From NCBI GenBank assembly GCA_021790255.1, contig JAJYIE010000004.1, positions 1 through 53,876 on the forward strand: a DNA stretch of 53,876 nt. Direction: 5' to 3'. This DNA is from a bacterium. Lineage in GTDB: Bacteria; Patescibacteriota; Microgenomatia; Daviesbacterales; UBA10151. Made by a program: the position numbers and the translations under genes. The notes under the pieces were generated by a model. It did not search any database. It saw only the letters and a program-made list of their open reading frames with translations, and was not told where the DNA came from. Of the stretch, positions 3,500 through 42,964 are shown in pieces (within the stretch, counting starts at the first letter, position 1; each line of letters begins with the position of its first letter).

Positions 3500-3567
3500 A
3501 ATTTGTATAAATAATCTCTTTTTGACCCCTATAATTAAATAGGGATACCCCCCATAACTAAGTTATG
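3500..3567 (+). promoter_or_regulatory. Unit-2 promoter/operator: AATTTGTATAAAT (3500-3512), -10 TATAAT (3530-3535), palindrome CATAACT-A-AGTTATG (3553-3567)
   Basis: The 13-mer and the 15-bp palindrome are exact repeats of those at 78-142. Confidence 0.65.
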
Positions 3568-3825
3568 ACATTGCAAAATAAAATCACAAACCTAGAAAAA
3601 TATGTTAGAGCAAGAACACCTCAGCCGAGGGATATTCTTACAAGAGTAACTCGCATTGTAATTGCTGTAGGCGAGTCACACAGTCCCGGCAGAACTCTTG
3701 AGCCGATAGACGAGATTGACAAAATTACCCACGCAGAGTGGTATGAGTTCACGAATAAACATCCAGACTGGAAAGACCCTTATTACATAACAGAATTTGA
3801 CGAAGCCTTGGCATGGAAAGACTAA
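3565..3825 (+). CDS. Small hypothetical protein, 'WKD' family (paralog 3)
   Basis: 86 aa; MTLQNKITNLEK..., DKITHAEW, ends AWKD. Confidence 0.75.
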   Translation: MTLQNKITNLEKYVRARTPQPRDILTRVTRIVIAVGESHSPGRTLEPIDEIDKITHAEWYEFTNKHPDWKDPYYITEFDEALAWKD

Positions 3826-6200: not shown

Positions 6201-7391
6201 CTATTCTTGGAGTTCTTTTTCTATTTCAATCAGGCGCTGATATTTGATAAGCCGCTGTTTTTGCAGCGGGCAGCCGCTTTTTAACCCGTCTGCCTGCAGA
6301 CCCACTGCCAGATCCGCAATAAAATCATCCATTGTTTCTCCGCTGCGGTGAGAAACAATAATTTTCCAGCCAAATGACTTGGCCAAAAGAGCCGCCTTTA
6401 TTGTTTCGGAAACAGAACCGATCTGGTTTGGTTTAACGATTACGGCATTGGCCGCTTTTTTCTCCCCTATTTCCTGTACCCTCCGAGGACTCGTGGTTGT
6501 TAAATCATCCGCTACAATCCAGGCACTATCCCCCAATTCTTTAGTAATATAAATAAAATTTTCAATATCTTTTTCGTCAAAAGGGTCTTCGATTGATAAT
6601 ATTTTGTACTCATGAATAATTTTTTTGTACAAATTCCACAAATCTGACAGGTCAATCTCCCACTCCCGCAGGCTGTAGCGCCCGTTTTTGGCGAGAGCCG
6701 AGGCAGCAACATCCAGACTAATTTTTGTATCCGTTTGGCCTGCTTTTTCCTGCATGGCTTTTAGCACCTGCAACCCTTCTAAGGGATCAGATGAAGGAAT
6801 TGTGTATCCACCCTCATCCCCCATTTTTAACTGCCCGTATTTGGCATGGATCTCGTCTGCAAGAAGCTGAAGCAGCTCCATCACCATCGTTAGGCTTTTC
6901 TTGGGGGAATTCACAGTGGGCACAAAGAGGTATTCCTGAAAAGGCAGGGAATTCTCAGCGTGCACTCCTCCTTCAATTAAGTTATAAAAACACCAAGGTA
7001 ATTTTTCTGGCTTTGTCCCAGCAATCTGGGCCACTAAACTAAATGGCTCCAGGTTTTGTGAGCGGGCCAGCAGTTTGGTAAAAGCAATACTTAGAGCCAA
7101 AATTAAATTTCCACCTAAGGCGGCTTTGTTGGGTGTGCCGTCCAATTTAAGCAGCATCTCATCAAGCTGCTCCACGGATTCATACTCGCCGGATAAAATC
7201 TCCGGTTTTATCTGTTCCAGCTTTTCCACTGCCTCCATCGGATCTAAAACTACTACTTCGGTAGCTCCGGTGCTTTTACCTGAAGGGACAGAGGCTACTT
7301 CCACCAAATTGCCTGAGTGCATAGTTGCCTCGAGTGTATTATTGCCGCGGGAGTCGGGGATAAGTCTTAGATCAATACTGTCAATTCTCAT
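6201..7391 (-). CDS. eno: Enolase (phosphopyruvate hydratase)
   Basis: DSRGN, VPSGKSTG, GGVH...FQEY, GDEGG, VKPNQIG, SHRSGET. Confidence 0.93.
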   Translation of the reverse strand: MRIDSIDLRLIPDSRGNNTLEATMHSGNLVEVASVPSGKSTGATEVVVLDPMEAVEKLEQIKPEILSGEYESVEQLDEMLLKLDGTPNKAALGGNLILALSIAFTKLLARSQNLEPFSLVAQIAGTKPEKLPWCFYNLIEGGVHAENSLPFQEYLFVPTVNSPKKSLTMVMELLQLLADEIHAKYGQLKMGDEGGYTIPSSDPLEGLQVLKAMQEKAGQTDTKISLDVAASALAKNGRYSLREWEIDLSDLWNLYKKIIHEYKILSIEDPFDEKDIENFIYITKELGDSAWIVADDLTTTSPRRVQEIGEKKAANAVIVKPNQIGSVSETIKAALLAKSFGWKIIVSHRSGETMDDFIADLAVGLQADGLKSGCPLQKQRLIKYQRLIEIEKELQE

Positions 7392-13481: not shown

Positions 13482-14530
13482 TTACCCAAAAAGGTGGTAT
13501 AGCTGTTCCAATCCTCCAGGATGCTCACTCAATTCCTTGGGGAAAATTAATCTCAGATAAAGCCACAGCCTTTTGTCCGTCAAAGGGCTTTTAGAAAGTC
13601 GTGTTATTACACTAGCAATTTCTCTACTGCCGCCAAAAGGTACTAAAACTCGCCGGTCCCCCGCAAGCATCTCTTTGGCATAAATGTAAGTCGTAGAAAC
13701 ACAAACCTTATCAGCCCCGATGGCATAAGCCGGCGCTCCCGAAGTAATTTGCTCGGGGTCAATATAAGGTGTAACGGAGAAATCCGTTACTTCTATAAAG
13801 GTCACCAGCTCTTCCACACTGACATATCTGTCAGTAAAACTTACATTGCTTTCTACGCCTAAGTTGTTTGCCAGCATTTTCAGGTTTCCCATCTGACTCA
13901 AGTAATCAGGATGTGTTTCCCTAATAACCTGATAGATAAAATTCGGCACTTTTTTACCATCTCCGGCAAACTCTTAATGGCATGTTCAATCCCCTTGTGA
14001 TGTGAAAGCAAATTAATGCTGGTCATAACTACCTTGCCGGAAAGATTTAGTTTGGCCTTAGCTTTTTGGGTGTTAAAGATAGAAAAATTCGGTATACCGT
14101 GAGGGATAACCACTACATCATCCAGAGGTACCCCGTAATTTTGCTGCAGATTCTTGGCCGTTTCTTCCAGCATTACCGCCACAAAAGATGACCTTTTACA
14201 AAGTGCCCGGATAATCCTGATATTTTTAGCATTAGGTTTTGTGGTAACTGTATGCAGGGTAGTAATAATCGGCCTCTTAACTTCCCGAAGAAGCTTTAAA
14301 GCAAAATCCCCGTATTTTCCTCCGTAAATGCCGTATTCATGCTGCAGGTAGACCATATCAATATCAGGACTTCTGTTAATCAGGTTAGCCGCCTTCCTGT
14401 AGTCACCCCATACTCCCTGTCTGATCTTGGCCACAACTTCTTCGGGATATTCAAGATCCAGGGTAAAAGTAGCTATCCCGCACTTTCTCGGTACATATGT
14501 AGCAATAAAAGCGATCCTTTGGTTGGGAGC
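13482..14530 (-). pseudogene. Glycosyltransferase family 4, disrupted
   Basis: RIAFIATYVPRKCGIATFT, QHEYGIYGG, TTLHTV, VIPHG, QITSG motifs; frameshift at the T-run 13950-13955; no in-frame ATG; apparent internal deletions. Confidence 0.75.
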
Positions 14531-14715
14531 AGGACGCCGCAGTGACAGCTCAGAAATTGTCCTAAGATATGCACACCTACTTATTTAAGATTTCACTTTT
14601 CCGGGGTTAACGAGAGAAGCCGGGAGCAGGTTACAAGTAAAGACACTAATAAAGTATAGTTTTTTCGGGAAGAATTCGGCAAAATAAGTGTAATAAATCA
14701 GCAAGAATCATCCAG

Positions 14716-14943
14716 CTATTTTGCAGCAGAACGGGCCTTCTCATGCAGGGCGGAAAATGATGTCAGCTGGACTGGTGCAGTCCAAAAATTTATTGCAGAG
14801 GGCGGATTAGTCCTGCTGGCGGCACCGGTCAGGCTAACCTGCTGCCGGGCCATCTCACTGACTGCGGATCCGGCAAAGGACGCCGCATAGATCGTTATCA
14901 CCACAATTGATACCGCCAGAATAACCAGCAAACTTTTTTTCAT
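14716..14943 (-). CDS. Small hypothetical exported protein
   Basis: MKKSLLVILAVSIVV signal-like N-terminus, 75 aa. Confidence 0.4.
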   Translation of the reverse strand: MKKSLLVILAVSIVVITIYAASFAGSAVSEMARQQVSLTGAASRTNPPSAINFWTAPVQLTSFSALHEKARSAAK

Positions 14944-15016
14944 CAGGGTTTTCTCAAATAATAGCCGGAATTTATTAAAAAACAGTAATGAAAAGGTAAA
15001 ATATTTTAAAGTCCAC

Positions 15017-15044
15017 AAAAATACCCCGCCAAGGCGGGGTATTT
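15017..15044 (-). terminator. Rho-independent terminator
   Basis: AAATACCCCGCC-AA-GGCGGGGTATTT inverted repeat with a U-tract on the minus strand. Confidence 0.8.
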
Positions 15045-15066
15045 CATTAAGGTCTGCAGATCTTAA

Positions 15067-15093
15067 TTACTTCTTTTTTTTCTTTTTCGGCAT
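15067..15093 (-). CDS. Micro-ORF MPKKKKKK
   Basis: ATG CCG AAA AAG AAA AAA AAG AAG TAA, preceded by GGGGGGTGA SD and followed by a terminator. Confidence 0.5.
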   Translation of the reverse strand: MPKKKKKK

Positions 15094-15175
15094 AGAGCCT
15101 CACCCCCCTCACAAAGGCATTTCGCCCTCTATTTAAGGCTTAACAAAACTGCCTCTCTTTGTCAAGTAACCAGTC

Positions 15176-15457
15176 TCAACTGACAAATCTTTTGGTAGTT
15201 TGCACCTGGCCTTCCGCAGCCAGAAGCAGCTTTCCCAGCTCCTCAACAAACCTCTTAGCGTGCTCACGGCTCATCCCCAGGCGGCTGACAATTCTCACCT
15301 GGTTAGTCGGCCCTACCCGCTGCATTACGTCAAAGACAACGCCAAAGTCATTCGTTGTCATCGAGATACTGTCAGTGTAAAGAATTGGTGTGCTGTCTAA
15401 GTTAACACTCACCTGCATACCCTCTGCCGGTGTAACCTCATCTTTCTTGCTGTTCAT
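15176..15457 (-). CDS. DUF3467-like small protein
   Basis: PILYTDSISM...VVFDV...RIVSRLGMSREHAKRF pattern; GGGGGTGA SD. Confidence 0.65.
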   Translation of the reverse strand: MNSKKDEVTPAEGMQVSVNLDSTPILYTDSISMTTNDFGVVFDVMQRVGPTNQVRIVSRLGMSREHAKRFVEELGKLLLAAEGQVQTTKRFVS

Positions 15458-15550
15458 ATTTCACCCCCTTTTTTGAGCGCTTAAATTGTAACAGAAAGCT
15501 GCCCCAGGGTAACAGTTGTAAGTTTTTTAAAATTGCGATACTCTTAAATT

Positions 15551-15910
15551 ATGGTCTACCGGATTGTGGGAGTAATTAATTTAGTTTTTGCCCTGCCGCA
15601 GACAGTTATCCCTCTGCTGCTATTTTTAATCACAGTTCCTGAGTTTGATAAGATTTACCATCAGTCTTTCGGAGTCAGTTCTGTCAGTTTAATGGTCAGT
15701 TATCTGGCTGCAACTTTGCTGCTTTTTATGGGGGCAGCCAACGCCTTCTTTGGGGTAAAGCTTTTTTCCCATTCCAAAACAGTTGAACATCGCTATTTTA
15801 AATATGCTCTAGTTTCTATTGTGCTGACACTGTTATTGGTAGGCTGGCTTATGGGAATTATGCTGGTTTCTTTGATAATACCAATTTACCACTTATCCAC
15901 ATTAAAATGA
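15551..15910 (+). CDS. Hypothetical membrane protein (3 TM)
   Basis: Hydrophobic segments, 119 aa. Confidence 0.6.
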   Translation: MVYRIVGVINLVFALPQTVIPLLLFLITVPEFDKIYHQSFGVSSVSLMVSYLAATLLLFMGAANAFFGVKLFSHSKTVEHRYFKYALVSIVLTLLLVGWLMGIMLVSLIIPIYHLSTLK

Positions 15911-42505: not shown

Positions 42506-42964
42506 CTATCTCTCCTCCTTTTCCCTACTCTTTATTGTTGCTTTTTCACTTTTTGCAGTTTCTTCTTTTTCCTCTTTCCCAACCTCTGCTTTTTCCTCCG
42601 GCATAACCTCCGCAATTGCCTCGGCTGCATCTTCCTTTAGCTCTTCCCTTACCACCGCTGCAACATCTTTACCGACTACCCGTACTATCCGGAAGTTTTT
42701 ATTCTTGGAAACAGGCCGGCCGTGGCTAATTTCCACCACATCACCTACCGCAACTTTTATATCATCTTGTACCAGATACCTTTTACTTCGCCTGAAAGAT
42801 TTTCCGTAAAGCGGGTGCGTCTTCCGGTTTTCCACCAATACAGTTACGGTCTGCGGCTGATTGGCAGTCACAACACGACCACGCAAAACCTGGCCCATGG
42901 CGGCTGCCGCCTGTTCCTTCTTGACTTCTACTTGTTTTGTTCTAGTCTGCACTTTTTTAGCCAT
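42506..42964 (-). CDS. rpsQ: 30S ribosomal protein S17 (N- and C-terminal extensions)
   Basis: LRGRVV, HPLYGK, GDVVEI...RPVSKNK. Confidence 0.95.
   Translation of the reverse strand: MAKKVQTRTKQVEVKKEQAAAAMGQVLRGRVVTANQPQTVTVLVENRKTHPLYGKSFRRSKRYLVQDDIKVAVGDVVEISHGRPVSKNKNFRIVRVVGKDVAAVVREELKEDAAEAIAEVMPEEKAEVGKEEKEETAKSEKATIKSREKEER

Follow-up and report, generated by a model that had tools for sequence, protein, structure and literature searches.

A candidate eight-codon micro-gene for an oligolysine peptide in a Daviesbacterales genome, and similar reading frames in the Microgenomatia

Introduction

Can an open reading frame (ORF) of eight codons, all but two of them for lysine, be a gene in its own right? 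The question is raised by a short spacer in contig JAJYIE010000004.1 (GenBank assembly GCA_021790255.1) of a bacterium of the Daviesbacterales (Patescibacteriota; Microgenomatia). The whole stretch analysed, called the window here, covers positions 1 to 53,876 of this contig. The assembly that contains it (G000) comprises 941 kb in 45 contigs, with a GC content of 45 % and a completeness of 92 %. A first-pass annotation, made from the letters of the window, had proposed at 15017-15110 a self-contained micro-gene for the peptide MPKKKKKK with its own Shine-Dalgarno sequence (SD) and terminator. We put at about 50 % the probability that the locus is a real, translated, stand-alone and unannotated micro-gene whose product would be a polycationic peptide.

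Results and discussion

The micro-ORF, its Shine-Dalgarno sequence and its terminator

Every element described for the micro-gene was present, on the minus strand of the window. The micro-ORF (15067..15093) reads ATG CCG AAA AAG AAA AAA AAG AAG TAA, eight codons and a stop for MPKKKKKK, with the ATG at 15093-15091 and the TAA at 15069-15067; it was seen in the sequence itself and in scans for lysine runs and for lysine- and arginine-rich (K/R) ORFs. Six nucleotides 5′ of the ATG, behind the spacer GGCTCT, lies the SD GGGGGGTGA (15100..15108) within the extended stretch GAGGGGGGTGA (15110-15100). The motif GGGGGTGA precedes also the ATG of the upstream DUF3467-like gene, as the first-pass annotation had pointed out. 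The intrinsic terminator (15015..15045) begins 21 nt past the TAA, in agreement with the 12-bp hairpin described earlier at about 20 nt downstream. Its hairpin spans 15045-15018 with a stem of 12 bp, a GC core UACCCCGC/GCGGGGUA at 15041-15022 and the loop CUUG, followed by a U-tract to 15015, with a folding energy of -16.7 kcal/mol. A simple terminator scan missed this structure because part of the U-run was counted into the stem. No ORF of at least 30 aa was found over 15019-15132 on either strand.

The lysine run is exceptional in its genome. In-frame runs of at least five AAR codons occur six times in G000, and only this one comprises six or more; it is also the sole run of at least five that opens at an SD-led ATG and ends immediately in a stop. 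Among the G000 ORFs of 6-40 codons that have an SD-like motif and in which K/R make up 55 % or more, no other is nearly pure in lysine, and the element as a whole is present in a single copy. Terminator-like hairpins are rare in the genome under strict criteria: with a perfect stem of 6 bp or more that includes four or more GC pairs, a loop of 3-8 nt and TTTT behind it, only 23 were counted on both strands, and the terminator of the micro-gene is among them. The 8-mer GG[AG]GGTGA was counted 82 times in G000, 38 times before ORFs of at least 30 aa.

Two further basic frames came up beside the micro-ORF. On contig C33 of G000 (about 3510-3640, plus strand) a 43-codon ORF beginning MAGFSSYFKGEKKKKKQNQEGG lies behind the strong SD AAGGGAGGTGG and may be an unannotated small basic protein. 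At about 42535-42582 of the window (minus strand), in a ribosomal-protein operon region, a 16-codon K/R-rich frame MGKRKKKKLQKVKKQQ follows a GGAGG and is probably a gene read in another frame.

Conservation in the family

A lack of conservation in relatives, together with that of a transcript or ribosome footprint, had been named beforehand as grounds for giving up the proposal. SD-led micro-ORFs were found in three of the 96 genomes of the family, by which the order among the genomes searched is meant, and the three belong to different genera (G000, G035 and G010). The closest relative found, G035, has a DUF3467 protein with an identity of 72-76 % and neighbours with one of 45-69 %. At the same position after the DUF3467 gene it has the SD AGGGGGTGA and, at a distance of 8 nt, the frame GTG CCC AGA AAA GCC AAG AAA AAG AAG AAA TAA for MPRKAKKKKK. 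In G010 the frame ATG GCC AAG AAG AAA AAG AAG AAG TAG for MAKKKKKK is situated before pspC, 4 nt behind the SD GGGGTGAGGCT, a sequence common to G010 and G000. The three ORFs differ by alternative start and stop codons, synonymous changes, a K/R exchange and one in-frame insertion of 6 nt. Beyond the SD, the ORF and a motif TTGAC...CAGTTTTGT-TAnnnn, the spacers gave no convincing alignment. Both relatives thus keep the SD, the start, the frame and the basic character while the flanks diverge, which speaks for a real coding micro-gene.

The genes downstream differ as well: in G000 there is an ORF of 75 aa without a family match, in G035 a gene for a PEBP protein and in G010 one for PspC, with no homology between those of G000 and G035. 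In G010 the micro-ORF stands behind a good promoter, TTGCAT-N16-TATTAT, and is followed by a structured tail and then a strong terminator; its leader hairpin GGACUU-AAA-GAGUCC has the same shape and relative place as that of G000 and another sequence, and the fold z-score is -4.4. Counterparts of the -35 and -10 boxes in G035 are TTGACT and TATTAC. In this genome the micro-ORF and the PEBP gene have no strong terminator between them. At 1860-1900 of the G035 locus (L002) a small hairpin, CUCUU-AAUGAG-AAGAG, holds the PEBP start codon in its loop and is followed by a U-rich run; it could act as a weak terminator or in the control of translation.

No further convincing member was found in the 96 genomes with five different patterns, although such rigid patterns can overlook diverged members. 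One match, a VAKKKKLL frame behind GGAGG that lacks a clear terminator, is ambiguous. Other family matches to a pattern of methionine, proline and basic residues were rejected: they had no SD and lay out of frame within dnaK and other genes.

A link to DUF3467, for which the first-pass annotation had suggested a search by synteny, did not hold beyond G000 and G035. No micro-ORF was found downstream of DUF3467 in ten other contexts, from seven relatives' genomes, six metagenome contigs and five homolog-encoding contigs (18 loci in all, four of them copies of one contig); P0003, the branch nearest in the DUF3467 tree, is among the loci without it. Conversely, no DUF3467 gene was found in G010, which carries the micro-gene. 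DUF3467 was therefore rejected as an obligate partner and is regarded as a neighbour.

The wider class in Microgenomatia and beyond

The pattern GGTGA-N3-10-RTG-NNN-(AAR)5, in which no stop codon is required, was searched in 401 genomes of the class Microgenomatia and yielded 19 matches in 18 genomes, the reversed pattern none; as these genomes are related and not independent, the counts and statistics of the class overstate the support. Eighteen of the 19 matches were ORFs of 7-13 codons of the type M[A/P/M]K5-9 with an occasional R, S, G, A or T, and all 18 had an SD of the (A/G)GGAGGTGA type. Of 20 loci, 13 from five families (that of G000 and 12 others from four further families) had a perfect TTGACA 60-130 nt upstream, and at least 16 had a clear intrinsic terminator. 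The terminators of many class members have a 5′ arm CCCC(U/G)C.

The genomic contexts vary by family. In the family with most matches the order is serS-micro-ORF-secA; other copies are found at an M42 peptidase, glycosyltransferases, pspC, DUF3467, a spermidine-synthase-like methyltransferase, an HD/histidine-kinase pair and an AI-2E transporter. No micro-ORF precedes secA in G000, as it does in Levybacteria. Because the flanking genes differ between families, the unit is regarded as self-contained. In two loci of one family (L050 and L051, family f15) the micro-ORF directly follows the gene of the spermidine-synthase-like methyltransferase (Pfam Spermine_synth, E 1e-9 to 1e-10); these genomes are related and count as one observation.

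The G000 micro-gene has the features by which the class was delimited: a near-consensus SD 3-10 nt from the start, a methionine followed by a small residue (A/P/M) and at least five lysines or arginines, an in-frame stop within 13 codons, an intrinsic terminator within about 100 nt, and a conserved ORF between diverged flanks. As far as sequence can tell, the micro-gene is real and conserved, and it represents a new family and a new locus for the oligolysine class.

The mixed AAA and AAG codons had been taken as an argument for coding, and this holds at the level of the class. Lysine codons were 45 AAA and 92 AAG in the micro-ORFs (33 % AAA) versus 1087 and 282 in the flanking long ORFs (79 % AAA), and this preference had the same direction in 19 of 20 loci, with one more showing it weakly. 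In G000 itself three AAA and three AAG stand against 69 % AAA genome-wide, codons too few for a preference to be read from them. The choice of AAG fits a selection against slippery A-runs, which would serve faithful transcription and lysine decoding.

A search for such cassettes throughout the Candidate Phyla Radiation (CPR), proposed earlier, gave its matches chiefly in Microgenomatia; in the other classes of Patescibacteria, a phylum-wide sample of about 374 genomes, a single ambiguous match was obtained. The trait is therefore seen as concentrated in Microgenomatia and not as CPR-wide. An exact scan for M[A/P]K6-stop behind GGTGA in about 185,000 species representatives returned 12 loci: nine in DPANN archaea, one in Daviesbacteria (G010), one copy of a class member and one in Armatimonadetes. 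The DPANN loci belong to Micrarchaeota, Aenigmatarchaeota and Woesearchaeota and encode MAKKKKKK between TATA-like boxes and oligo-T tails. On the Micrarchaeota contig JACQBR010000018.1 (L101, about 6650-6923) two MAKKKKKK micro-ORFs stand in tandem, 232 nt apart, each with its own TATA-like box (ATTTAAAT or CTTTAAAT), GGTGA motif and T-rich tail. Micro-ORFs for VAKKKAAKK(R/K)K with the same SD context were found in Rokubacteria. The literature search yielded no publication that describes oligolysine micro-genes, nor any that contains 'MAKKKKKK'.

These counts bear on the simplest alternative, a chance ORF in the A-rich spacer before the terminator of the DUF3467 gene. Strong SDs before very short frames are not rare per se, since 13 of the 82 sites of the 8-mer precede ORFs of fewer than 30 codons, and only three family genomes show the micro-ORF; both would suit a frame of no significance. 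The case for non-chance lies in the lysine run together with its conservation and not in the strong SD alone: the run is the only one of such length in G000, it is kept in two other genera against diverged flanks, and the reversed-pattern control gave 0 matches versus 19 in the class. Judged from these comparisons of sequence, the micro-gene is not chance, and an accidental origin is very unlikely.

Expression signals and the proposed peptide

The signals upstream of the SD are of unequal quality. A candidate -35 box TTGACA (15160..15165, minus strand) lies 15 nt past the DUF3467 stop codon and is promoter-like by its sequence. Separated from it by a spacer of 18 nt is a weak candidate -10 box AAGCCT (15136..15141, minus strand; score 8 of 12), the least certain part of the unit, which agrees with the consensus only at the A of position 2 and the T of position 6; it may alternatively be read as TAAGCC. 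A TGT precedes the -10 candidate in G000 and likewise in G035 and G010. The spacer between the DUF3467 stop and the micro-ORF measures 82 nt and contains no convincing terminator, and read-through from the DUF3467 promoter is a possible alternative source of the transcript. At the predicted 5′ end of the transcript, 5 nt 5′ of the SD, a 5-bp leader hairpin AGGGC-GAAAU-GCCUU (15114..15128, minus strand) may contribute to RNA stability. It was seen in a fold in which the stretch covered by the ribosome was kept open; the unconstrained fold pairs this region differently. A further hairpin, AUUAAG-(AUCUGCAGAC)-CUUAAU (15046..15067, minus strand), begins in the folds at the last base of the stop codon and would be opened by a ribosome at that codon.

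From these elements we propose the following course of expression. A transcript of about 115 nt, starting at the leader hairpin, would be made from the weak own promoter TTGACA-N18-AAGCCT, by read-through from DUF3467, or by both. It would present a near-optimal SD and then eight A-rich codons free of structure, with the stop codon lying in a small hairpin, and would end at one of the strongest intrinsic terminators of the genome. Ribosomes would load efficiently and release MPKKKKKK. Alanine or proline at position 2 permits removal of the initiator methionine, and alanine at this position is said to be typical of highly expressed genes; with proline as residue 2 the peptide would probably be trimmed to PKKKKKK with a charge of about +7. 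This peptide would be the product, a small diffusible polycation that may act by its charge on RNA, DNA or ribosomes, as a gene-encoded counterpart of polyamines. The peptide is favoured as the product because the unit moves between unrelated neighbours and occurs in archaea. The recurring unit of promoter, optional leader hairpin, SD, A-rich ORF, stop, hairpin and terminator seems made to yield a short, stable message that is translated heavily.

Several observations weigh against this reading. Only three of the 96 family genomes carry the micro-gene with the patterns used, which may mean that it can be done without, is frequently lost, or frequently escapes rigid patterns. The -10 box of G000 is poor, and the relatedness of the class genomes inflates the numbers given above. 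A peptide of eight residues is normally degraded fast, and in ORFs so short the peptidyl-tRNA tends to drop off. A motif at the RNA level would also agree with the preference for AAG and the conserved run of purines. Matches to the Pfam families of spermidine synthase, ornithine/arginine decarboxylase, AdoMet decarboxylase and agmatinase were absent from G000 (92 % complete), which is compatible with a polyamine-like role; yet polyamine genes are commonly lacking in reduced genomes with or without the micro-gene, and their absence does not discriminate. A search of sequencing runs for the locus gave one DNA data set, a mine-drainage metagenome that is probably the source, and no RNA data set. 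The contigs of two metatranscriptomes of the same study gave no match on 14700-15700, which says nothing on expression.

If the purine tract rather than the frame were the conserved feature, the locus could be a non-coding RNA: an (AAR)n tract and terminator in the 3′ untranslated region (UTR) of DUF3467, or a small RNA, in which the frame is incidental. The distance of 82 nt to DUF3467 with no convincing terminator between, the poor -10 box and sub-threshold RsmY-like and leader-like Rfam matches would be in line with this, and repeats of ARN are known to be bound by proteins in other bacteria. It is nevertheless improbable: start, SD spacing, in-frame stop and a 3-nt periodicity are kept in G035, G010 and 18 of the 19 class matches, G010 carries the micro-gene and no DUF3467 was found there, and no Rfam family reached its threshold.

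The extreme basicity of the peptide, expression signals as strong as those of ribosomal protein genes and the occurrence in lineages with reduced genomes also recall a very small ribosome-bound component. Such a miniature counterpart of eL41, bL37, bS22 or bTHX could fill a groove of the rRNA where standard proteins are lacking. However, even the shortest such protein known is three times as long as the peptide. The members of the class vary freely in length and sequence (K5-K9 with S, G, A, T or R inserted), unlike a protein fitted to a site, and three of 96 family genomes is a thin distribution. We regard a ribosomal component as having a low probability.

Still less is to be expected of a growth-control minigene, in which drop-off of peptidyl-tRNA(Lys) would tie up tRNA(Lys) and throttle translation in the manner of the lambda bar minigenes. 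A strong SD and a very short ORF raise drop-off according to the minigene literature; many class members, however, have 9-13 codons, beyond the lengths at which drop-off is said to dominate, and the idea comes from analogy alone. The released polycationic peptide remains the reading that we prefer to this one. Its widest extension would be that oligolysine peptides are a cross-domain trait of very small genomes (Microgenomatia, DPANN), sporadic elsewhere, which are made on ribosomes as a polyamine substitute, neutralise the charge of ribosomes and nucleic acids, and come from tiny transcripts that owe their abundance to ribosome-controlled termination of the mccA kind, with MPKKKKKK as one lineage-specific copy; this generalization is quite unlikely to hold as a whole.

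Folding of the transcript and cis-acting alternatives

It is also conceivable that translation matters and the peptide does not. In the mccA minigene a bound ribosome favours termination and stabilises the message (PMC4231749). The mini-ORF of G000 could be a cis-acting ribosome-loading device of this kind: a ribosome on the SD and ORF would free the 5′ arm of the terminator, leading to termination and a short, protected, stable RNA, whereas without ribosomes the SD would pair with that arm and allow read-through into the downstream gene. Downstream expression or RNA stability would then be coupled to translational capacity or to the supply of Lys-tRNA. The predicted folds lend themselves to such a switch. 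In the best fold of the nascent RNA, before the 3′ arm is made, the SD region pairs with the 5′ arm of the terminator in a duplex of -14.7 kcal/mol. Within this stretch (15018-15112) there is a close likeness between the SD GAGGGGGGU and the terminator 3′ arm GGCGGGGU. Ribosome-induced termination and message stabilisation have a precedent in mccA (PMC4231749), a sub-threshold Rfam match to Phe_leader was obtained (29.2 versus 55 bits), and G035 lacks a strong terminator between the micro-ORF and the PEBP gene. However, a G-rich SD and a C-rich arm pair by composition alone, and the finished terminator is far more stable (-34.4 versus -27.8 kcal/mol). A ribosome that stalls on the lysine codons or at the stop extends as far as the first hairpin and does not touch the terminator. 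The downstream genes are unrelated among G000, G035 and G010 and across the class, the downstream ORF of G000 has its own promoter-like site, and the DPANN copies lie between a TATA-like box and an oligo-T tail. We hold the cis-acting device to be unlikely as an account of the locus; the scheme is compatible with the peptide reading.

A sensor of Lys-tRNA or of stalling had been suggested by the first-pass annotation. The folds of the locus show the stop hairpin and the terminator only, and apart from the SD nothing competes for the 5′ arm; a classical lysine-sensing attenuator is not supported. No antiterminator that a ribosome on the lysine codons could control was found, and the downstream genes differ among relatives. 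Leader-peptide attenuation is not an obvious option for the DPANN copies. The Rfam search found no family at the gathering threshold, the best sub-threshold matches having 29.2 versus 55 and 26.5 versus 57 bits. Compared with these control schemes, the released peptide remains our preferred reading of the micro-gene.

Neighbouring genes

The upstream neighbour (15176..15457, minus strand) encodes a DUF3467-like protein of 93 aa and ends with TGA; its Pfam match (E 6.5e-4) is under the gathering score. The structure model predicts three beta strands and a C-terminal helix with a predicted local distance difference test (pLDDT) score of 72.6. A Foldseek search of the PDB with this model found no match at E of 0.001 or less. 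Weak rows (E 0.3-1, TM 0.4-0.55) pointed to the single-strand nucleic-acid binders PC4/Sub1 and Pur-alpha and are at most a hint. In the literature DUF3467 came up only in an unrelated mention.

Downstream, an ORF of 75 aa (14716..14943, minus strand) has an N-terminal hydrophobic segment and no match in Pfam. The promoter-like site ahead of it, TTGGCG-N18-TAAAAT (15032-15003), overlaps the terminator of the micro-gene. The other neighbours are glycosyltransferase remnants and a histidine kinase. At 13482-14434 (minus strand) adjacent ORFs of 178 and 155 aa resemble pieces of one GT4 glycosyltransferase, of which only the first contains a Glyco_transf_4 domain; this looks like gene decay.

Significance

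If translated, the micro-ORF would be among the shortest protein-coding genes proposed in any organism, with eight codons compared to the seven of mccA. The oligolysine class escapes gene callers, whose length cut-offs exclude such ORFs. That it recurs in Microgenomatia and DPANN archaea with a full set of expression signals would point to a missing piece of their cell biology, the supply of polycations for ribosomes and nucleic acids. For annotation, spacers with a strong SD in such genomes merit screening for micro-ORFs before they are labelled as leaders or 3′ UTRs.

Comparison with known systems

Among the characterised systems mccA comes close in architecture. Both have an ORF of 7-8 codons with its own SD, an intrinsic terminator close behind and a short (here predicted) transcript, and in both the upstream sequence could pair with a terminator arm unless a ribosome is bound, which for the present locus is an in silico prediction. 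Unlike mccA, the locus has no adjacent MccB/ThiF-type or other peptide-modifying gene; its neighbours are DUF3467, a small hydrophobic ORF, the glycosyltransferase remnants and the histidine kinase. The mccA heptapeptide differs also in its end, since the peptide proposed here is a pure lysine run ending in lysine, without a C-terminal asparagine, and is encoded on the chromosome among varying neighbours.

With the leader-peptide attenuators (pheL, hisL, trpL, thrL, leuL) the locus shares a short ORF, a run of one codon type and a terminator behind it. It differs in that no antiterminator overlaps the ORF, that the architecture recurs at unrelated loci and in archaea, and that the downstream gene does not belong to a lysine pathway and differs between relatives. 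Tiny basic ribosomal proteins are likewise very short and strongly basic and have strong translation signals. They are about three times longer (eL41 about 25 aa, bL37 24 aa, bTHX 26 aa, bS22 about 33 aa), and the sequence and length of the oligolysine peptides are not fixed; eight residues are too few for a comparison of homology or fold.

The nearest likeness is to the other members of the class, among them the Levybacteria type in the order serS-micro-ORF-secA. The G000 copy differs from that type by its family and by its locus, after DUF3467 and not before secA, by proline instead of alanine as second residue, by a much shorter 3′ tail (21 nt from the stop to the terminator), by the poor -10 box and by its patchy occurrence in the family. 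With the Levybacteria type and the remaining copies it has in common the strong SD, the methionine with a small residue behind it, the run of lysines or arginines, the length within 7-13 codons, the structured tail, the terminator and the TTGACA that is often found upstream.

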